Positions 8,403-43,026 of a stretch of 43,247 nucleotides of DNA are shown here, piece by piece. The stretch lies in the IMG/VR virus record IMGVR_UViG_3300038393_002169, positions 1 through 43,247 of that record; one strand, 5' to 3'. Position 1 is the stretch's first letter, and each line of letters begins with the position of its first letter. The stretch is from a virus (Duplodnaviria > Caudoviricetes). A program made the translations under genes and the position numbers. Under the pieces are notes generated by a model. The model was not told the origin of the DNA and made no database searches. It worked only from the letters and a program-made list of their open reading frames with translations.

Positions 8403-8558
8403 TTAGCGGGTACGCTCGGTGCTGCCATTTTCCGGGATCATGTTCCAGCCGAGCCGGCGGCGGATTTCCGCAGGTGGCGGCGGCGGTTTTTTCGATCTGA
8501 TGCGTTCTGCGAGGTAATCCCGCACTAACTGCCGGGGCGGGTGCGTGACGGCTGCCAT
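8403..8558 (-). CDS. small protein, paralogue of 921..1073
   Basis: MAAVTHPPRQLVRDYL...KPPPPPAEIRRRLGW; AGGAGG RBS. Confidence 0.75.
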   Translation of the reverse strand: MAAVTHPPRQLVRDYLAERIRSKKPPPPPAEIRRRLGWNMIPENGSTERTR

Positions 8559-8660
8559 TGCATTCCTCCTTGGAATGATGCGCCAACACCGGCGCGGGGG
8601 TCCCTTGTTCAGTATGTACCGCAGAGGGGGACACCAACCGAGCTGGGTAAAGGTGGGTAT

Positions 8661-9230
8661 ATGAGCGAAGTCAACAGTAGCGGAGGTTATCCGTTCGACG
8701 CAGCCGGGCTGGATTGGCTGGGTGGTGGCGTCAGGAGCATGCGCGAGCTGGCACGTAAGCACGGCATCCCCGAGGCAACATTACGCCGCCATGCCAAGGA
8801 GCACGGCTGGACCCGTGGGGCGTCCGATATCAAGCGCGAGATCGTGCGCGAGGCGCTGGCCGGCGAGGATGTTGACGCAGAGGTGACGCAGGATTTGACG
8901 CACGAGGAAGTGCGTCAGCGGCGCGTCAAGGAGGCCCTGCAGGACGTGGCCGACATGACGATGGGCTTGCGGGTGGCGCGCGCCTGCATCGGCAAGCTGC
9001 TGGCCATGGTGGACAGCATCGACAACCCGAACGACATCAAGCGCGTGGTCGAGGCCAACAAGGGCGCGGTGGAGACGATCCGCAAGATCAGGAGCCTGGA
9101 CGACGAGCCGCCGCCGGAGGCCGAAGTGACGGTAACGGTGGGGGATTCCGACCTGGCCGAGCTGCGCGCGGCGTTCAGGAAGCGGCTGGAGGAAATGAAC
9201 GGGGCCGCAGGGGCCCCGGAGGCGCGTTAG
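8661..9230 (+). CDS. terS: terminase small subunit (putative)
   Basis: N-terminal HTH SMRELARKHGIPEATLRRHAKEHGWTR, helical C-terminus, upstream of TerL. Confidence 0.7.
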   Translation: MSEVNSSGGYPFDAAGLDWLGGGVRSMRELARKHGIPEATLRRHAKEHGWTRGASDIKREIVREALAGEDVDAEVTQDLTHEEVRQRRVKEALQDVADMTMGLRVARACIGKLLAMVDSIDNPNDIKRVVEANKGAVETIRKIRSLDDEPPPEAEVTVTVGDSDLAELRAAFRKRLEEMNGAAGAPEAR

Positions 9231-9424
9231 CGCCGGGGCGGGAGGACGATTAACAGTAGCGTGCAGAACAGTAAGAGCTGCACAGCCGCCGCCTGCCTGC
9301 CGCGCAGACACGCGAGCGCGAACAGGCTCGTACAGAACGCAAGCAGCAGATAACCCACGGCGGCCCAGCCCACCGCGTGCCAGTCGATTTGCCGCAGTCG
9401 CTTTAACTTGTTTCGTATGCGCAT
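9227..9424 (-). CDS. small membrane protein
   Basis: Two hydrophobic segments in 65 aa. Confidence 0.45.
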   Translation of the reverse strand: MRIRNKLKRLRQIDWHAVGWAAVGYLLLAFCTSLFALACLRGRQAAAVQLLLFCTLLLIVLPPRR

Positions 9425-9669
9425 TGATGTGCTCCGTGGTTGTGCCGGCTGTGGATTGCCTCCGCGCCTTGGATGAACGCGCCGTCCGCACGCGTGACCA
9501 CGTATTCCTGAGTCTCCTCGACTTGCTCCAACCGTACCCGCTGCTCGCCGGCAAACTGGCGGATCGAGATCGGCGTGCCTACATGCTTGGCATACGTGGC
9601 GGTGTGCGGCTCGATGGTGATCGTGTCCGAGAAGAACAAGATCGGTTTCAGTGAAGTGCCCATTGGCAT
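9403..9669 (-). CDS. hypothetical protein
   Basis: AAAGGAG RBS before MPMGTSLK. Confidence 0.6.
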   Translation of the reverse strand: MPMGTSLKPILFFSDTITIEPHTATYAKHVGTPISIRQFAGEQRVRLEQVEETQEYVVTRADGAFIQGAEAIHSRHNHGAHQCAYETS

Positions 9670-9694
9670 TGCTCCTTTAAATGGGGGGTGGTGG

Positions 9695-9925
9695 CTACTC
9701 GGCAGCGGTTTCCAGCTCGGTTGCGGCATTCTCCAGCGACGTAATTGCGTCCTCCAGGGCCGATACCGCATCGCGCGACTTTTCGCCGTTGGCGGCGTCC
9801 TGCAGGCTTTCCGGCATGTTGTTGAGCGCGTCTTGCTCGTCATCGCGTACCGCTTCAACGCGTGACGCCAGTTCCTCGACCTGGCTTTTGATCGCGGCCA
9901 GCTCCTTGCGGCGCTTATCGTTCAT
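9695..9925 (-). CDS. phage coiled-coil hypothetical protein
   Basis: MNDKRRKEL...EQDALNNMPESLQ pattern. Confidence 0.8.
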   Translation of the reverse strand: MNDKRRKELAAIKSQVEELASRVEAVRDDEQDALNNMPESLQDAANGEKSRDAVSALEDAITSLENAATELETAAE

Positions 9926-10034
9926 GGTCGGCCTCGGTTGACTTGGTAAACTTGGACGGCCACACGCGCGGCAGCACTTTTTCGATGAAAAAGAGCAGCA
10001 CGAGCAGCCCGTTTAGAAAAGCAACGATTGGCAT
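9915..10034 (-). CDS. 39-aa hydrophobic peptide
   Basis: GAAAGGAG RBS; MPIVAFLNGLLVLLFFIEKVLPRVW. Confidence 0.55.
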   Translation of the reverse strand: MPIVAFLNGLLVLLFFIEKVLPRVWPSKFTKSTEADHER

Positions 10035-10159
10035 GGGGTTCTCCTTTCCGTGGGTACGGCCCGACAGTACGCCTGTCCCTGAAACGGGGACAGTGCCCCG
10101 CGCAAGATGGCCAGCATACTGCACCCGGAGCATGACAACGCGCAATGACTGCGCAAAGC

Positions 10160-10182
10160 AAAAGGGCCGCACGAAGCGGCCC
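10160..10182 (-). terminator. intrinsic terminator
   Basis: Minus strand GGGCCGC-TTCGT-GCGGCCC-TTTT. Confidence 0.7.
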
Positions 10183-10203
10183 GCATGGGGTGGCGCCGAA
10201 GGC

Positions 10204-10605
10204 CTAGTTGTCGACCTGGGCCAGCATCGGCGCGGTTGAGGTCAGGACATAGTCGATGTGGATCGGGTGATCCGGGGGCAGCTCGGAATCCTTCGCCCAT
10301 TCGCGCAGGTCGTGCTCGAAGCGCGTGCGCGCGTCTTCGACCGTCATGCCCTCGTACATCAGCAGCCTGTTGTCGTCGCCATCCAAGCGCCCGATCAGGG
10401 CCAGGTGCGGGTGTACCGCGAGCACCTGGCTCGCCGCTGCAAGCAAGTTCACGCCAGCGCGCAGTGCAAGGCCCTGTTGGTCGTCGGCATAGTAAATGCG
10501 TTCGTCGTTGCGCAAGGATGTGTACACACGTTCGGCGTCCTCGCGGGTGCATGCGCTGCCGAGCGCCTCTTGAATCTCGGTCAGCATGGCGTTTCTGTCC
10601 TTCAT
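10204..10605 (-). CDS. hypothetical protein
   Basis: GGAGGAG RBS, 133 aa. Confidence 0.75.
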   Translation of the reverse strand: MKDRNAMLTEIQEALGSACTREDAERVYTSLRNDERIYYADDQQGLALRAGVNLLAAASQVLAVHPHLALIGRLDGDDNRLLMYEGMTVEDARTRFEHDLREWAKDSELPPDHPIHIDYVLTSTAPMLAQVDN

Positions 10606-10706
10606 TGCAATCTCCTCCGGTAAGGTGGTGAGAGGTCAGGGTAGCACGATGATCGAATGGCAACACCAACCGCCGCAAGCCCGCAATGCCGGGATGCGCT
10701 GGCGCA

Positions 10707-12335
10707 ATGACCCAGCTGACCCTGCCTGACGACGTGCGCGCCGCGCTGCAAAGCGCCCCGTTCGCCGCGATCTGCGACCTGTGGGCCTTGATCGAGCGCC
10801 AGTACGGCGACGCCGGGCGCGCCTGGCTGGGGCGCAATGACCGTTTTTACCTATTAACCCGATTGCTGCACCGGCTCGACGCCGTCCATCCGTGGCTGTA
10901 CGCCCGGTGCAGGGAAGTGGAGGAGCGCCCAGACGGTCATCTTGACCTCTGGGCGCGATGTTGAGAACACTATAAATCGACGATCATCACCTTCGCCGGC
11001 ATCATCCAAGAGCTGCTGGTCGATTCCGAGATCACGATCGGCATCTTCAGCCACACCAAGCCCGTCGCGCGCAAGTTCCTGTTGCAGATCAAGCAAGAGC
11101 TGGAGGCGAACAAGACGCTGCAGGCGCTGTACCCCGACGTGCTGTACGCCGATCCGCGCAACGAGTCCTCGAAGTGGAGCGAGGAAAAGGGCATCGTGGT
11201 GCGGCGCCGCAGCAACCCGAAAGAGGCGAGCATCGAGGCGCACGGGCTGGTCGACGGCCAGCCAACCGGCGCGCACTTCCTGCTGCGCGTGTATGACGAC
11301 GTGGTAACGCGCGAGAGCGTATCGACCCCGGATCAGGTGGCCAAGACGACGGCGGCATGGGAGCTGAGCGACAACCTCGGGGCGCGCAACGCCGACGGCC
11401 AGGCGCGCTCGTGGCACGTCGGCACGCGCTATTCCTTTGCCGACACCTACCAGGCGATCATGGACCGGGGCGCGCTGAAGGTGCGCATCTACCCGGCCAC
11501 GGAGAACGGCTTGCCCGACGGGCGTCCGGTGCTGCTGACGGCGGAGGCGTGGGCCGACCGCAAGCTCAAGCAGGGCCCGGCGACGATCGCCTGCCAGATG
11601 CTCCAGAACCCGGCGGCCGGCAACGAAGCGATGTTCAAGAAGGAATGGCTGTCGTTCATTGATATCCGGCCTGCAACACTGAACGTCTACATCATGGTGG
11701 ACCCGGCCCACAGCCGCAAGAAGGGCAGCGACAACACGGCCATGGCGGTGGTCGGGGTGGACGCCAGCGGCAACCGCTTCCTGCTGGACGGCTATCGGCA
11801 CAAGATGGGCCTGCGCGAGCGCTGGGAGGGGCTGCGGGGGCTGCGGCGGGTCTGGATGGCCCAGCCAGGCGTGCAGCTGGTCAAAGTCGGCTACGAGCGC
11901 TACGGCATGCAGGCCGATCTGGAGTATTTCGAGGAACAGATGCAGCGCGAGAAGGACGCGTTCGAGATCATCGAGCTGAACTGGACCAGCGACGGCGCGC
12001 AGGCCAAGGACGACCGCGTGCAACGCCTGCAGCCGGACTTCATCAGCAAGCGCTTCTACCTGGCCGCGGTGACGCAGGGCGAGACCGCGAACCAGCGGCG
12101 CATCCGCGAGCAGGGGCAATCGTTCCGCATCTTCAAGCCGGTCATGCGGCGCGACCACGAGGGCAACCTGTACAGCCTGAACAAGGGGTTCTTGGAGGAA
12201 TTCTTGACCTACCCGTTCAGCGCCAAGAAGGACCTGATCGACGCCGTTTCGCGGCTGTACGACATGGAGCCGGTGCCGCCGATCCTGATCGACGAGCGCG
12301 CGCTCGAGCCGGAACTGTACGCGGACGGGCTATGA
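10707..12335 (+). pseudogene. terL: terminase large subunit interrupted by in-frame TGA at 10962-10964
   Basis: One frame throughout: DLWAR-C-*-EHYKSTIIT (Walker A), LRVYDDVVT (Walker B), VGTRY, IMVDPA...KKGSDNTA nuclease motif, DLIDA; start codon uncertain. Confidence 0.85.
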
Positions 12336-24471: not shown

Positions 24472-24666
24472 ATGACTTACACGTACGAGGAATTGCAACC
24501 CCAGCTGCCCGACGCCCAGCATATCTACGTCGGCTGCACGGTGGCCGATAGCGACAACATGATGCAGGATTTCTGGCGTGTTTCCGACGGTGGCGGCGCC
24601 TACGCGATCGGAACCGTGAACCCGGAGCCTGAATTGGCCGACAAGGAAATCTTCCCGACCCCGTGA
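24472..24666 (+). CDS. hypothetical protein
   Basis: GGAGG RBS, GTGA coupling to MTase. Confidence 0.6.
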   Translation: MTYTYEELQPQLPDAQHIYVGCTVADSDNMMQDFWRVSDGGGAYAIGTVNPEPELADKEIFPTP

Positions 24667-26162
24667 GCGCCCATACCCTGCATCTGGGCGACTGCATCGA
24701 CGTGATGCGCGCCATGCCGGACAACAGCGTCGACGCGATCGTGACCGACCCGCCGTACCACCTGACGACGGGGAAGAAGGACGGGAGTGGTCCGGCCAGC
24801 GACAACCCGGATTCGCCGGCAGGGCGCGCGCGGGTCGGCACCGGCTTCATGGGCATGGCATGGGATGGCGGCGACATCGCCCAAAGCGTGGACATGTGGC
24901 GCGAGGCGCTGCGCGTGCTCAAGCCAGGCGGTCACCTGCTCGCGTTCTCCGGATCGCGCACCTACCACCGGATGGCGTGCGCGATCGAGGACGCCGGGTT
25001 CGAGATCCGCGACCAGATCATGTGGGTGTACGGCTCGGGCTTCCCGAAGTCGCTGGACGTGTCCAAGGCGATCGACAAGGCGGCGGGGGCCGAGCGCGAG
25101 GTGCTTGGTGTAGCTGATTCTCGGGGGAGCTTGAAATCGCCCGCGTTCAATACAAGCTGGCGGGGAGCCGAGGGCCGCGACGACATACGTGATCTGAGCA
25201 AAAAAAATATCACCGCCCCCGCCACCGACGCCGCGCGCCAGTGGGGCGGCTGGGGCACCGCCCTGAAACCCTCGCACGAGCCCATTTGCGTTGCGCGCAA
25301 GCCGCTGGTCGGCACCGTGGCAGTGAATGTGCAGGCCTGGGGCACCGGGGCGTTGAACATCGACGGGTGCCGGGTGCCGGTGACCGACGCGGGCTATGCG
25401 CGCAACTGCGCTGGCGATCGCGGCCACGCCGAGAACCGCAAGCGCGACATGGCATTCGGCATGACGGCCGGTAGCGCCCACGAACAAGGCCGCTGGCCCG
25501 CCAACCTGATCCACGACGGCAGCGACGAGGTGGTGGCGCTGTTTCCGGCCGAGGCTGGCGCCGCAGCGCCCGTCCACAAGCGCGGCGGCGACAAGTTCAG
25601 GAACAGCTACGGCAGCTTCGCCGGCAACATCGACGAGGCGGGCAGCACGTTCCGCGGCGACGCCGGCAGCGCGGCGCGGTTCTTCTACTGCGCCAAGGCG
25701 TCGCGCAAGGACCGCAACGAGGGTTGCGAGGCGATGGCCAAAAAGCCGTTGCTGTGGTCGAGCGGCACGCAGAATCCGGGCTCGTTCCAGGCCGAGGGCA
25801 CCGACAAGAGCAGCCAGAATCACCACCCGACCGTCAAGCCGGTATCCCTTATGCAGTATCTGGTGAGGCTGGTGACGCCGCCGGGCGGCACCGTTTTCGA
25901 TCCCTTCATGGGCTCCGGCTCGACCGGCAAGGCGTGCATGCGCGAGGGCTTCCGCTTCGTCGGCGCCGAGCTGAATCCCGAATACCTGGCGATCGCCGAG
26001 GCGCGCATCGCGCACGCGGCGCAGGCGGCCGCACGCGCCGCGCCACCTGTCGTGTCGCCGCAGATCGACCTGTTCGAGCAAGCCAGCGGCAAGCAGCTCG
26101 ACCTGCTGGGTGAAGTGGACGACATCCACGCCTGTTCCTCGGCATACGGGCTGTGCGAGTGA
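24663..26162 (+). CDS. orphan N6A/N4C DNA methyltransferase (beta class)
   Basis: DAIVTDPPY, HPTVKP, DPFMGSGSTG motifs in beta order. Confidence 0.92.
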   Translation: MSAHTLHLGDCIDVMRAMPDNSVDAIVTDPPYHLTTGKKDGSGPASDNPDSPAGRARVGTGFMGMAWDGGDIAQSVDMWREALRVLKPGGHLLAFSGSRTYHRMACAIEDAGFEIRDQIMWVYGSGFPKSLDVSKAIDKAAGAEREVLGVADSRGSLKSPAFNTSWRGAEGRDDIRDLSKKNITAPATDAARQWGGWGTALKPSHEPICVARKPLVGTVAVNVQAWGTGALNIDGCRVPVTDAGYARNCAGDRGHAENRKRDMAFGMTAGSAHEQGRWPANLIHDGSDEVVALFPAEAGAAAPVHKRGGDKFRNSYGSFAGNIDEAGSTFRGDAGSAARFFYCAKASRKDRNEGCEAMAKKPLLWSSGTQNPGSFQAEGTDKSSQNHHPTVKPVSLMQYLVRLVTPPGGTVFDPFMGSGSTGKACMREGFRFVGAELNPEYLAIAEARIAHAAQAAARAAPPVVSPQIDLFEQASGKQLDLLGEVDDIHACSSAYGLCE

Positions 26163-38511: not shown

Positions 38512-40839
38512 ATGAGCGAATGCGCGACCATTACCATCCTGACCCCGATGGACGATCTGCCCCCGGTCAGCGTCGCGCCGCTGCCGCCGCTGGCGCCGCC
38601 GCCGATGCTCGAACCGCTCGGGCCATTCGATGGCGATCCGGACATGCCGCCGCTGGAGCCGCTGGAGCCGCTGGAGCCGCCCGAACTGTTCCACCTGACG
38701 CCGCTGTCGCCGCTGCCGTACGCCAGTTCGGCCGCGTCGGGCGTGGTGGGCAACGTGCTGGCCCAGACCGGCGAGCTGGCCGCCAGTTCGCAGGCGCAGG
38801 CCATCGCGAACATCGAGGCGCTGGCGGCCTACGAGCCAAGCTTTACGCCGCTGACCGCGCCGCCGGTGCCTGCCACGGCCCCGATCGAGTTGCCCGACAT
38901 CGGCGAAGTGCCCCAGCCGGGCGACCTGACGCCGAACTTCAGCGCCGCGCCGACGCCGCCGGTACTGGGCAGCCCCGCAGCGCTGGAACTGGCCGATCCG
39001 CCGGTGTTCGATGTCACCGACGTGCCGATCATGGAGATTCCGCTGCCGGACCCGTTCGACGCCCTGTTGCCGGCCGAGCCGCAATTCCAGCCGGCGCCGG
39101 TGGCCGTGGAACCGGACGTGGAGCTGCCGCCGGTGCCAGCCCTGTTCGAGCTGGAATTGCCCGATGCGCCCCAGATCACGCTGCCGCTGTTCGACGCCGA
39201 ACTCGGCGACGCCCCGACCCTGCCCGATGCGACGTTCAGCTATGCGGAAGTCGAGTACGACAGCGCGCTACTGAGCGCGATGCAGGCCCGCCTGGCGCCG
39301 CTGGTGGCCGACATGGCCGCGACCGGGCTGGCCGATGCGGTCGAGCAGGCAATCTGGGACCGCGCCGCCGACCGCGAGGCCTTGCTGACGCACCGCGCGA
39401 CCGGCGAGGCGCTGCGCCTGATGAAAGCGCGCGGCTTCAGGATGCCGGAGGCGGCGCTGGTGCGCATTGTCCAGCAGGCGCTGCAGGGCGGTCTGAAGCG
39501 CACCGCAGGTCTGCGGCGCGACATCGCGATCGAGCAGGCGCGCCTGCGGCAGGCGAACTACCGCTTTGCGCTGGAGACGGCGGTCGTGCTGGAAAGCCGG
39601 ATGATGGACCGCGCCAATGCCGCCCAGGCGCGCGCGCTGGCGGCGGCCAAGGCCAGCGTGCAGACCGAAATTGCGATCTTCAACGCCCGCCTGCGGCTGT
39701 TTTCGGCCGACGTGCAGGCGTTTGCGATGAAGGCCACCGGCTTTCGCGCCCGGCTGGAGGCGGCGCTGGCGGCGATTGCCGTGTACCGGGCTCAACTGGA
39801 GGGACAGCGTGCGGTCGGGGAGATCAATGCGCAAAAGGTGGCGATCTACAAAGCCCAGATCGAGGCGGTCCATTTCATCGTCGACACCTACCGCACCCGC
39901 GTGGAGGCGGCCAAGGCCCAGATCGAGGCGAACCAGGCGTTTGTCGACACGTATCGCGCACGGATCAGCGCGTTTCAGGCGCAAATCGAAGCCAAGAGCG
40001 AGGAGTATGTGACGTATGCGGCCCGCGTCAAGGGGCAGATCGCCAAGGCTGACTTGTTCGAGCAGCAAGTAAAGAGTTACCGGGGGCGCGTGGATGCGTT
40101 TGCCGCGCTGGTCACGGCCAACGTCAGCGCCCAGACGCTGCGCTTCAAGCAGGCCAGCGAGTTCCCGCTGGAGCTGTACAAGGCCCAGATTGACGCCTAC
40201 AAGACCGGCACCGCGGCGACCGTCGAGCAGTTGCGCGCGGTGGCATCGGTGTTCAATGCGCGCGTCAAGGCGTTCGGCGCGCAGGAAGCGACCAAGGCCG
40301 CGCACCTGGACGCGCAGTCCAAGATTGCCGCCGCCAATGCGCAGGCGACGCTGGCGCAGGCCGAAGTGCTGCTTGACACCGGGCGCGCGAACTTGCAGGT
40401 GGTGCAGGGGGCGGTCGAGACGGCGCAGAGCAATCTGCGCAGCGCCGGCCAACTGGCCGGCCAGCTGGCGGCGGCCGCGATCGCCGCCCAGAGCGTGCAT
40501 GCGTCCATTTCCGAAAGCGGTTCGCAGTCGGTGTCGAACTCGGCATCGAGTTCCAGTTCCGACAGCACGTCAACCTCGACCAGCATGTCGACCGCCTCCT
40601 CGGCCTCGACCAATGTGGCGCACAGCGCGACCAAGGGCACCTCGATCAGCAATTCGAAGACCGACACCGAAGGGCGCAGCTATAACCGCGGGATCAGCAG
40701 CGGCTTCTCGACCCGGTTCTCGACCAACAATTCGAGCGGCGTGTCGGCCCACAACTCGTACCTTGGCAGCGTGTCGCGCAGCAGCAGCAGCAACCTGACC
40801 CGCAGCTGCACCGATTCCACCATCGTGGCTGATTCGTAA
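38512..40839 (+). CDS. Pro-rich/coiled-coil/Ser-rich virion protein A
   Basis: AAGGAGG RBS; VEQAIWDRA, ARGF motifs; paralogue of next gene. Confidence 0.7.
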   Translation: MSECATITILTPMDDLPPVSVAPLPPLAPPPMLEPLGPFDGDPDMPPLEPLEPLEPPELFHLTPLSPLPYASSAASGVVGNVLAQTGELAASSQAQAIANIEALAAYEPSFTPLTAPPVPATAPIELPDIGEVPQPGDLTPNFSAAPTPPVLGSPAALELADPPVFDVTDVPIMEIPLPDPFDALLPAEPQFQPAPVAVEPDVELPPVPALFELELPDAPQITLPLFDAELGDAPTLPDATFSYAEVEYDSALLSAMQARLAPLVADMAATGLADAVEQAIWDRAADREALLTHRATGEALRLMKARGFRMPEAALVRIVQQALQGGLKRTAGLRRDIAIEQARLRQANYRFALETAVVLESRMMDRANAAQARALAAAKASVQTEIAIFNARLRLFSADVQAFAMKATGFRARLEAALAAIAVYRAQLEGQRAVGEINAQKVAIYKAQIEAVHFIVDTYRTRVEAAKAQIEANQAFVDTYRARISAFQAQIEAKSEEYVTYAARVKGQIAKADLFEQQVKSYRGRVDAFAALVTANVSAQTLRFKQASEFPLELYKAQIDAYKTGTAATVEQLRAVASVFNARVKAFGAQEATKAAHLDAQSKIAAANAQATLAQAEVLLDTGRANLQVVQGAVETAQSNLRSAGQLAGQLAAAAIAAQSVHASISESGSQSVSNSASSSSSDSTSTSTSMSTASSASTNVAHSATKGTSISNSKTDTEGRSYNRGISSGFSTRFSTNNSSGVSAHNSYLGSVSRSSSSNLTRSCTDSTIVADS

Positions 40840-40851
40840 AGGAAGCGCGCC

Positions 40852-43026
40852 GTGGCAGACTTCAGCATGAATTTCGGGCTCACGGGCAGCCCGCCTGCGC
40901 CAGGGGTGCCGAGCCAGATCGACGATGCCACCGCGCTGGTCGGCGAGGTGCTGACCGAGTCGCGCGGGCTGGCCGCACAGTCGGCCACGCGCGGGCTGGC
41001 CGCCATCGCCGCGCTGGGCAACTTCGACGTCGCCATTCCGGCGCTGGAGCTGCCGACCTTCGACATCCCGGTACTCGATGCGCCAGCGCCCGGCACGCCG
41101 CCGGCCGATCCTGGCGATCTCGGCGTGGTGCTGCCGCCGCTGCCGCCGGCGCCAGCCCAGGGCCCGCTCGGCGTGATCAGCGTCGGCGAGGCGCCCGAGG
41201 CCACGCTGGTGCCGCCGCTGCTGGCCGACATCCCGCTGCCCGACCCGCTGTCGGTGGTGGTCCCGGCCGCGCCGGTGCTGGCCGAGGTCGGCGCGCCAGC
41301 AGAGCCCGATTACGCGCTGCCCGAGGTGCCGCAGTTCGTGGCGCTGAACCTGCCGGATGCGCCGGTGTTCGAGATCGAGCCGTTCGACGAGCCCGATCCG
41401 CAGGCGCCCACCGCCCCCGACGTGCAGTTCGTGTGGAACGAAGTGGCCTACCGCAGCGACGAACTGGCGGCGCTAAATGCGCGCCTGCTCGACCTGGTGG
41501 GCGGCGCGGCCACCGGCCTGGCGCCGGAGGTCGAGAACGCGATCTGGCACAAGGGCTGCGACAGCGAGGCGATGCTGACCTACGCGGCGGTCGACAGTGC
41601 GCTCAACGACAGTGCCGCGCGTGGCTTCTCGATTCCTGGCGGGCAGCTGGTGCGTGTGGTACAGCAGGCGATCGACGATGCGCTGGCCAAGGACGCCGAG
41701 CTGTCGCGCGCCACGATGGTCGAGGCGGTCCGGCTGGAGCAGCAGAACTTCCAGTTCGCGTTCGGCCAGGCGCTCGCGCTGGAGACGCGCCTGATCGAAC
41801 TGTTCAACCAGGTGCAGGAGCGCGCGCTCGATGCCGCCCGCTTCCGCTCCGACGCGATGATCGAGCTGTTCAATGCGCGGGTCAGCCTGTACGAGGCCGA
41901 TGTGCGGGCGTTCGGCGTCAAGGTCGACGTGTTCAAGGCGCGCTTGGAAGCGGCGCTGGCGCGGCTCGACCTGTACAAGGCCGAGCTGGAGGGGGTCAAG
42001 CTGCGCGGCGAGCTGAACGTTCAGCTCGCTCATCAGTACAGCGCCCAGGTGGAGGCGGTCAAGGCCGCCACCGACATATTCAAGGCCCGTGTTGAAGCTG
42101 TGAAACTGAGCGTGTCGACCAATAAAAACCGGACTGAGCTGTATAAGGCCGAGATCGAGGCCTATGCCGCCCTCGTCAAGGGCAATGGGGAGCTGGTCAA
42201 GAGCTACCTCGCCAGGGTACAGGCGGAGCAAGCCAAGGCGCAGGTGTTCGGCCAGCAGGTTGCCGCCTATACCGCGCGCGTGGAAGCCTACCGGGTGCTG
42301 ACCGACGCCAAGCTGGCCGACGTGACGTTCCAGGTGCGCCAGTTGCAGGAATTCCCGATGGAGCTGTACCGGGCGCGGATCGGCGCCTACCAGTCGCAGG
42401 TGGGGGCCGAGGCGGCGCGCCTGGCGGCCACCGCCGACGTGTTCCAGCTGCGGGTCGAGGGGTTCGCCGCGGTCGAGCGCGCCAACGCGCAGTACGGCAC
42501 CGCGCAAGCCGACGCCGCTGCGACCACGACCCGGCTGTACGCGTCGAAGGCGCAGATCGCGCTGCAAGACGGGATGAACAAGATCAAGCTGGCCCAGCTG
42601 CGCTCGGAAACGGCGCAATCGGCGCTGCGCGCGGCCGGCCAGCTGACGACCCAGCTGGCGTCGGCCGCGATGAGCGCACGCAACGTGTCGGCGTCGCTGA
42701 CCGGCTCGACCAGCAACTCGGCCGGGGTGTCGGCATCGGTCAACCAGTCGGTATCGAACAGCGTCAGCAACAGTTCGAGCGCCAGTGTTTCGAAGAACTT
42801 CAGCGCGACCACCGGCATCAACAACAGCGCCAGTGTGGCGATCAGCCATTCGCAGTCCAGCTCGAACAACCAGACCTGGTCCGACAGCGTTGACCAGTCG
42901 GTCAGCAATTCGACCTCGCACTCGGCCAGCAACGAAACGTCGCGCGGCGTGCGCAACAGCACCGATACCTCGGCGCGCATCAGCGACAACGCGACCATTT
43001 CGACCTTGTACCAGCACCGCCGCTAA
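40852..43026 (+). CDS. Pro-rich/coiled-coil/Ser-rich virion protein B
   Basis: VENAIW, ARGF, EFP(L/M)ELY and LR.AGQL shared with A. Confidence 0.7.
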   Translation: MADFSMNFGLTGSPPAPGVPSQIDDATALVGEVLTESRGLAAQSATRGLAAIAALGNFDVAIPALELPTFDIPVLDAPAPGTPPADPGDLGVVLPPLPPAPAQGPLGVISVGEAPEATLVPPLLADIPLPDPLSVVVPAAPVLAEVGAPAEPDYALPEVPQFVALNLPDAPVFEIEPFDEPDPQAPTAPDVQFVWNEVAYRSDELAALNARLLDLVGGAATGLAPEVENAIWHKGCDSEAMLTYAAVDSALNDSAARGFSIPGGQLVRVVQQAIDDALAKDAELSRATMVEAVRLEQQNFQFAFGQALALETRLIELFNQVQERALDAARFRSDAMIELFNARVSLYEADVRAFGVKVDVFKARLEAALARLDLYKAELEGVKLRGELNVQLAHQYSAQVEAVKAATDIFKARVEAVKLSVSTNKNRTELYKAEIEAYAALVKGNGELVKSYLARVQAEQAKAQVFGQQVAAYTARVEAYRVLTDAKLADVTFQVRQLQEFPMELYRARIGAYQSQVGAEAARLAATADVFQLRVEGFAAVERANAQYGTAQADAAATTTRLYASKAQIALQDGMNKIKLAQLRSETAQSALRAAGQLTTQLASAAMSARNVSASLTGSTSNSAGVSASVNQSVSNSVSNSSSASVSKNFSATTGINNSASVAISHSQSSSNNQTWSDSVDQSVSNSTSHSASNETSRGVRNSTDTSARISDNATISTLYQHRR

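Follow-up and report, generated by a model that had tools for sequence, protein, structure and literature searches.

A recurrent gap of 4 to 7 nucleotides in the Walker A motif of phage large terminase genes is probably bypassed by translating ribosomes

The window analyzed here is the whole of IMGVR_UViG_3300038393_002169, a linear virus record of 43,247 bases from a soil metagenome, with a completeness estimate of 44%. PHROG matches identify small and large terminase, portal, major head, and tail proteins among its products. The terminase small subunit is encoded at 8541 to 9230 on the plus strand (PHROG 1206, E 1e-13), and about 1.5 kb of small opposite-strand ORFs (9227 to 10605) lies between it and the large subunit gene, terL; the spacing is similar in the related locus L001, and the two genes are adjacent in L005 and L026. 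Elsewhere in the window, a DNA methyltransferase gene (24663 to 26162) sits within the structural gene region, and two tandem large paralogous ORFs (38512 to 40839 and 40852 to 43026) both match PHROG 10969, a family of unknown function.

The terL gene of the window consists of two plus-strand segments. The 5' segment (10707 to 10958, with an alternative ATG at 10686) comprises 84 codons ending in Trp-Ala-Arg and aligns from residue 1 with a gap-free homologue that is 90% identical, while the 3' segment (10965 to 12335) comprises 456 codons running from Glu-His-Tyr-Lys-Ser to the stop codon and encodes the remaining ATPase and the nuclease domain (PHROG 38, E 4.5e-41). Between them lies a coding gap of 6 nucleotides, TGTTGA (10959 to 10964, plus strand), recognized from the sequence and from alignment with homologues, so that the letters read TGG GCG CGA (10950 to 10958), TGT TGA, and GAA CAC TAT AAA TCG (10965 to 10979). 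The TGA is the single in-frame stop between 10707 and 12335, and both flanks share one frame, open for 85 codons from the ATG at 10707 ahead of the interruption and for 456 codons after it. The first-pass annotation was right in describing a Cys-stop pair set into the Walker A motif of an otherwise undecayed gene. A structure model of the gap-free homologue (90% identical) matches solved large terminases and places a strand before Lys-Ser and a helix beginning at Lys-Ser, as expected for a Walker A loop, with pLDDT below 50 at residues 79 to 85, i.e., with low confidence in the loop itself. Sequence searches against solved structures returned nothing useful. One terL homologue, 85% identical, comes from a genome bin labelled Telluria; isolated phages gave no DNA match and only distant TerL protein matches (best below 32% identity). 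There is one terL copy per record in all five records searched, and the gapped gene is the only large terminase gene found in the window record. Scans for Rfam families, tRNAs, promoters, and terminators found nothing at the gap site.

Alignment of homologues at the site, as the first-pass annotation had proposed, identifies the six bases as surplus, since none of the 120 homologues listed has extra residues at the junction. The R-x3-K spacing is kept in 295 of the 377 collected proteins, loop length being fixed in 295/295 matches, and none of the 377 has 1 to 4 extra sense residues before the H-x-K motif.

The gap recurs. Of 50 related viral loci, 46 span the site and one, L005, also carries TGTTGA; L005 lies on a separate contig, its TerL is 83% identical to that of the window, and dS downstream of the gap is 0.95. 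A pattern scan that allowed any insert of 1 to 30 bases between the Arg codon and the Glu codon gave 8 matches in viral contigs, 86 in metagenomes, and 67 in GTDB genomes. Among 163 matches (these loci and the window), 18 are terL, with gaps of 4 to 7 nucleotides in 17 and of 1 nucleotide in L141; none of the 67 matches in GTDB genomes is a terL, and none of the 18 terL matches has an insert of 8 to 30 nucleotides. Six gap sequences occur (TGTTGA, AGGT, TGACCGA, TAGGT, ACGT, and TGGT) on about 15 distinct contigs, the window included. All follow one Walker A Arg codon, five of the six are out of frame, and every one places a stop no more than two codons after the Arg. Downstream of the site the gapped TerLs are 43 to 86% identical to a gap-free reference (90% for the window). 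An exact 20-nucleotide pattern gave no match in viral contigs, one further viral scan gave 21 matches (6 known gapped contigs and 15 without terL match or context), and another gave 4 (3 known and 1 unrelated), with no new gapped terL; most scans demanded EHYK codons or WAR and may let other gap types escape. On the minus strand of L141, near 300 to 363, one extra base after the Arg codon CGG produces CGG TGA without a hairpin, which represents either a +1 frameshift site or a sequencing error. A tandem 15-nucleotide repeat at a contig end (L297, 2590 to 2696) is a chance match unrelated to terL. An assembly error, which the first-pass annotation had allowed for, is not compatible with a separate contig carrying the same 6 nucleotides and with the recurrence of six gap sequences.

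Gapped genes behave as functional genes. L051 and L055, sister rows that share the AGGT gap and are 80% identical, differ with a dN of 0.16 and a dS of 1.54, and L051 and L137, which share the same gap, with a dN of 0.008 and a dS of 0.13; dN/dS is 0.06 to 0.10 across L051/L137 and L055. In a clade with support of 99, L053 (7-nucleotide gap), L057 and L066 (5 nucleotides), and L089 (4 nucleotides) are 63 to 64% identical, their synonymous sites are saturated, and their frames are open for 457 to 478 codons. The frames downstream of the gap are thus under purifying selection (dN/dS of about 0.1), also in deep, all-gapped clades. It could be argued that the gene is dead, the phage being defective or a grounded prophage, because an essential motif is interrupted by a stop; in addition, the record of L005 carries a provirus classification, and no phage in culture has a close TerL. 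We regard this as extremely unlikely, as the downstream frames remain open and selected across gapped sister genes, gap length has changed within the deep gapped clade, and one cluster of short fragments was seen on 61 contigs. The single inactivating hit that had been suggested does not agree with recurrence in six forms, and the window, a linear virus record, gives no sign of being a prophage. We conclude that the gap is genuine, recurrent, and under selection.

A quick tree built from the C-terminal parts of 87 TerL proteins shows two clades that are wholly gapped and, overall, an interleaving of gapped and gap-free genes that needs at least five changes of the gap. In a 23-row subset, a single gapped clade was rejected (p-AU 3e-13), as was a clade of the window and L005 (p-AU 3e-10). 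The nearest tree rows are gap-free, namely, L001 for the window and L026 for L005, yet no exact match shared by the window and the 80-kb genome of L005 is longer than a 59-nucleotide tract that spans the gap (10914 to 10972, plus strand; the next longest is 41 nucleotides), and it has sharp conservation edges among gapped genes. This combination suggests that the tract, which we refer to as the cassette, was gained or lost by recombination and likely moves between phages in this way; it has either moved recently or been strongly conserved. At the end of the L005 genome (L301, 7160 to 19816, plus strand) there is an open frame of more than 4,200 codons.

The main feature of the cassette, absent from the first-pass annotation, is a predicted RNA hairpin of 14 bp at 10925 to 10956 (plus strand), recognized by folding and by comparison of site sequences. 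It lies within coding sequence, in a conserved stretch of 45 nucleotides ahead of the gap, its 3' arm being the Leu-Trp-Ala codons, and is made up of a lower stem of 9 bp, a 1-nucleotide bulge, an upper stem of 5 bp, and a 3-nucleotide loop; the segment from 10915 to 10985 folds at -30.1 kcal/mol (z -4.2). Our comparison used 92 distinct site sequences, or cores, in which the window and L005 count as one and L141 is left out of the nine gapped cores, and many of the gap-free rows came from a scan that demanded the upstream codons GARGTGGAG. A 7-bp core stem is complete in all nine distinct cores with gaps of 4 to 7 nucleotides and in 0 of 82 gap-free cores. None of 3,000 synonymous recodings of the window's 15 codons folds equally well, and 182 complete the core stem. 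Upstream of the stem lies a purine-rich tract (10914 to 10923, plus strand), invariant among gapped cores, with a Shine-Dalgarno-like GGAGG at 10919 to 10923 whose role we infer; its first 9 nucleotides are identical in 9/9 gapped cores versus 1/33 gap-free cores (L001 to L050), and the energy of its pairing to a 16S tail does not set it apart from gap-free genes (-9.3 versus a mean of -9.0 kcal/mol). Codon choice agrees between gapped genes in 437 of 546 comparisons (0.80) over the 15 codons that precede the gap, against 0.31 in the 15 codons upstream of those, 0.47 after the gap, and 0.46 between gap-free pairs over the 15 codons before the site. The peptide upstream of the gap is itself conserved for its own function.

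Changes within the stem in a 10-row alignment keep pairing: two are one-sided, to G-U or U-G, one replaces a G-C by an A-U pair in two rows, and one replaces a C-G by a U-A pair. This tolerance of wobble pairs points to RNA. Seven of the 14 stem pairs are invariant and hence uninformative, being partly fixed by the protein, and the nine cores are not independent, because the tract may have spread by recombination. Protein databases give a further view. Among 123 short homologues, 40 stop 0 to 3 residues past the Arg (15 of these 40 had built the profile); they are known as protein only, and some possibly end at contig edges. Outside the profile, the position at which the stem requires an xGC codon holds S, R, or C in 21 of 25, compared with 14 of 59 homologues that continue normally, an enrichment that is partly circular, because the profile favoured Ser at that position. 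In a profile search of 1.84 billion representatives, the best 150 matches include 12 that end short and 122 with normal spacing. Two truncated fragments, P0143 and P0203, have Ala-Pro-Asp and Trp-Gly-Arg, residues that would permit a compensatory pair at the stem base.

The first-pass annotation had instead stressed a dyad in the 24-mer around the gap (GC content of 0.375) and a mini-hairpin within it. The count of 14 symmetric positions in 24 is correct, but its special status is not borne out, as 49 of the 1,605 24-mers of the gene reach 14; the score is 8/24 in L005 and 2 to 10 at other gapped sites, and with no dyad kept in relatives, we rejected dyad and mini-hairpin as a signal. The same annotation saw a possible excision scar or att site. 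One could imagine, more generally, a switch at the DNA level, in which the bases are inserted or lost through a recombinase or mobile element and part of the population carries an intact gene. A 2-nucleotide repeat (GA) flanks the insert of the window, gapped and gap-free genes interleave on the tree, and the 59-nucleotide tract is exact between two genomes that are otherwise 65 to 80% identical, all of which would fit such a switch. The six gap sequences, on the other hand, have no common ends, inserts of 8 to 30 nucleotides are missing from the 18 terL matches, no dyad is conserved, and the stem changes tolerate G-U. Searches for integrase, HNH, GIY-YIG, and LAGLIDADG genes gave no match in the window and L005 records (44% and 80% complete), and no tyrosine integrase was found in any of the five records searched, of which that of the window is 44% complete. 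On these incomplete records and on scans for inserts of up to 30 nucleotides, a DNA-level switch is, in our judgment, very unlikely.

The Walker A Arg codon (10956 to 10958, plus strand) is CGA in the window, and codon comparison of the cores marks it as the putative take-off site. CGA is used in seven of the nine gapped cores and in 2 of 82 gap-free cores; the other two gapped cores have CGC or CGT. Only at these CGC and CGT sites is the next codon a stop, a sense codon following in seven of nine cores, including the window; the first gap codons are TGT, AGG, ACG, TGG, TGA, and TAG. An inosine-containing tRNA-Arg isoacceptor reads CGU, CGC, and CGA, and the pairing of inosine with A on CGA is weak. 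At the other end of the gap, the last triplet is NG(T/A) in 9/9 cores: CGT or CGA in three, GGT in five, and TGA in the window, where the triplet at 10962 to 10964 is at once the in-frame stop and the putative landing site. The landing triplet would pair with the Arg tRNA at every position in three of nine cores, and at positions 2 and 3 it matches in all nine; GGT mismatches at the first position, and the TGA of the window would form a G-U pair there. The distance from the stem to the landing triplet is 5 nucleotides in seven cores, the window among them, and 6 and 7 nucleotides in the two cores with a stop after the Arg codon. The gap of the window is 2 nucleotides longer than the common 4-nucleotide gap, and its stem is 2 bp longer, which amounts to one event.

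Because distant relatives carry interruptions of 4 to 7 nucleotides behind the same predicted hairpin, it is likely that ribosomes jump the gap, and all gap lengths are then explained by one event, in which the ribosome leaves the Arg codon and resumes at Glu. We put the probability of this short-gap translational bypass, which would restore the WAREHYKS loop, at about 0.7, judging from comparison of sequences. In the mechanism we envisage, the ribosome would arrive with peptidyl-tRNA-Arg (the inosine isoacceptor) on the Arg codon, and release would be triggered by weak pairing on CGA or, at the CGC and CGT sites, by a stop codon in the A site. The 3' arm of the hairpin would at this point be inside the ribosome and would refold as the mRNA exits, pushing the ribosome forward by 4 to 7 nucleotides, while the upstream purine tract possibly anchors the ribosome through 16S rRNA. 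The tRNA would then re-pair at the NG(U/A) triplet 5 to 7 nucleotides past the stem, and decoding would restart at Glu, so that the WAREHYKS loop has its usual form. At the sites read, ribosomes that fail to jump would stop within 0 to 1 codons and leave an 85-residue fragment, which would lower the output of full-length TerL. Evidence that counts against a hop includes the mostly imperfect landing matches and the sense codon in the A site at 7/9 sites, and in the window, TGT at +3 would pair equally to TGA at +6 and lead to termination. Stop-codon hopping had been among the ideas of the first-pass annotation, and it is favoured here in a changed form: the signals (hairpin, Shine-Dalgarno-like tract, and Arg codon) lie 5' of the insert, and take-off is likely from the Arg codon.

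Readthrough, selenocysteine insertion, a small frameshift, or a hop over the stop from the last sense codon would each give a TerL with one or two extra residues. The gap of the window is in frame, every gap puts a stop within two codons, and a +1 shift at the stop would reach the correct frame for the 4-nucleotide gaps. Such readings are improbable, as gaps of 4, 5, 6, and 7 nucleotides would need four different events with one common 5' signal, a tRNA on ACG could not re-pair at CGT after a +1 shift, and the products would lengthen a loop whose length is fixed, extra residues being absent from all 377 proteins and R-x3-K spacing being kept in 295. The combination expected of selenocysteine or readthrough, an in-frame UGA with conserved 3' structure, was not found: the gapped cores have neither a conserved 3' hairpin nor conserved pairing across the gap, there is no Rfam match near the site, and neither the window nor the L005 genome contains a tRNA gene. 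Readthrough and selenocysteine, both raised in the first-pass annotation, are also unfit for gaps of 4, 5, and 7 nucleotides.

The conserved RNA hairpin beside the site could alternatively be a binding signal for a protein or an RNA, and the 4 to 7 nucleotides might be cut from the mRNA as a micro-intron, either by a trans-acting ribozyme or by a nuclease-ligase pair that recognizes the hairpin. Each gap can be rewritten as an insert that lies between CG and (T/A)GAR and ends in G, like group I introns, and at one gapped locus, a polynucleotide kinase-phosphatase-like gene lies directly upstream of terL (L089, 2759 to 3148, minus strand). However, inserts of this size are too small for a ribozyme fold, the last base of the 5' exon would be G where group I splicing requires U, no Rfam family was found at the site, and the CGA bias and the restriction of stops to CGC and CGT sites would be left unexplained. 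We consider mRNA excision unlikely. A search with the RNA model found no second copy in any of five records. A Shine-Dalgarno-like tract followed by a hairpin and a start codon is also a known layout for initiation, and ATG or GTG triplets overlap several gaps, which might suggest a TerL of two chains, with translation of the second starting anew past the hairpin, aided by the purine tract. These triplets lie in frames other than that of TerL, the first start in frame in the window comes only at 11082, 39 codons past the Walker A lysine, and the split would cut the P-loop, all of which makes two chains hardly credible.

TerL P-loops are known intein sites (PMC5050341), and as far as the accessible part of that source goes, the gapped genes share with these inteins the same hotspot motif. 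The inteins differ in being in-frame protein inserts of hundreds of residues that lie 12 nucleotides further 3', and the gap is not a remnant at the P-loop intein site; a group I or II intron or an intein at the gap itself was also rejected, the insert being only 6 nucleotides long, with no Rfam match. In three homologues, LAGLIDADG-bearing inserts follow EHYK, 12 nucleotides 3' of the gap position. These inserts (P0069, P0074, and P0118) and others in L048, L214, and L272 are large, come after EHYK or EHFK, and have Met or Ala, not Cys or Ser, as their first residue; they are possibly atypical inteins. A second intein site occurs near TerL residue 292 in P0011 and P0020 (Hint-like match). In the L053/L054 lineage, a GIY-YIG-like ORF (L053, 1717 to 2226, plus strand) overlaps the start of the terL with the 7-nucleotide gap; it is a candidate free-standing homing endonuclease, and the Pfam match, obtained in its sister record G004, is weak (E 5.7e-5, under the cut-off). 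At the other gapped loci checked, the gene upstream of terL encodes the terminase small subunit or another protein.

A bypass in a terminase gene has been described for the Streptomyces phage phiHau3, and the accessible part of the report describes a 10-nucleotide block in terL (7 nucleotides in the S. catenulae prophage StrepC.1), full-length protein in Streptomyces, and proposed signals that comprise an internal Shine-Dalgarno sequence, a hairpin, take-off and landing codons, and a UUA trigger (PMC10732093). A junction peptide detected by mass spectrometry proved the hop in E. coli after UUA was changed to UAA, hopping at the cassette in E. coli depended on a slow codon in the next position, and the signals could not be dissected in the native host (PMC10732093). 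The Hau3 terminase bypass is also mentioned in PMC5009743, again as far as the accessible text goes. Both systems have a short noncoding block at a terL junction of invariant length and a hairpin next to the gap (9/9 gapped versus 0/82 gap-free in the window family). As to the internal Shine-Dalgarno sequence proposed for Hau3, the window family has a candidate tract 5' of the hairpin in 9/9 cores, at a pairing energy equal to that in gap-free genes; the Hau3 g6/g7 junction (GWG/KD) looks like a Walker A loop. On the features described, the window family differs in lacking UUA at the gap start, in its TerL family and hosts, in taking off from Arg where Hau3 uses Gly, in gaps of 4 to 7 nucleotides with six sequences and landing triplets that mostly match at two of three positions, in the sense A-site codon at 7/9 sites, and in many more natural examples, the Hau3 type being found in 3 of 100 genes. 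The working would be Hau3-like, but with the UUA missing and another TerL family involved, the window element differs from the Hau3 type. We found no terminase bypass other than Hau3 in the literature searched, a search whose coverage excluded most subscription journals.

Among other bypass systems, the accessible portions of the sources describe a 50-nucleotide bypass in T4 gene 60, in which refolding of a 5' stem-loop on exit from the ribosome is proposed to push (bioRxiv 2024.12.09.627546, PMC7026636), and protection by the bypass insert against the MobA nuclease (bioRxiv 2022.08.31.505936). Gene 60 and the window family resemble each other in that one protein comes, or in the window family probably comes, from two frames across a stop-containing gap, in the 5' stem-loop, and in a cassette that moves, or in the window family likely moves, between phages. 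In contrast to gaps of 20 to 50 nucleotides with their own take-off hairpin, those of the window family are too short to fold, and its sole hairpin precedes the gap within coding sequence. T4 further has matched GGA codons, a signal in the nascent peptide, and a homing endonuclease; in the window family, an adjacent endonuclease-like gene was seen only in the L053/L054 lineage. A stop directly follows the putative take-off codon in only two of nine cores, and in the window a Cys codon intervenes. The byps of Magnusiomyces mitochondria are likewise mobile, ribosome-skipped inserts with take-off and landing codons but differ in their length of 27 to 55 nucleotides with a hairpin of their own, in their many sites, and in residing in yeast mitochondria, insofar as these sources describe them (bioRxiv 2022.08.31.505936, PMC7026636).

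The benefit of the gap is the least certain step of our proposal; it may throttle TerL or may spoil the target of an intein homing endonuclease. Going beyond the bypass itself, we tentatively speculate, at rather less than even odds, that the element is a portable hop cassette of about 50 nucleotides, written mostly in synonymous positions of a conserved protein motif, that makes bacterial ribosomes skip 4 to 7 nucleotides, works even when the A site holds neither a starved codon nor a stop, and makes do with two-of-three re-pairing, the length of the 5' stem serving as the ruler for landing, and that it spreads between distant phages, throttling TerL or shielding the P-loop from intein homing.

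Few natural genes have an established case of programmed ribosomal bypassing, and relative to what is accessible on Hau3, our findings would add a probable short-gap terminase bypass in another TerL family and without a UUA trigger. The family offers a natural allelic series: its members span four gap lengths and six gap sequences, their landing triplets include full matches and mismatches, the A-site codon is a stop in some and a sense codon in others, and the stem ranges from 7 to 9 bp. Such a series suits direct reporter work in E. coli and bears on the question of whether pairing of the exiting mRNA alone drives the ribosome forward. Annotation splits gapped terL genes into two ORFs or marks them as broken, and the phages that carry them would therefore be misjudged as defective.
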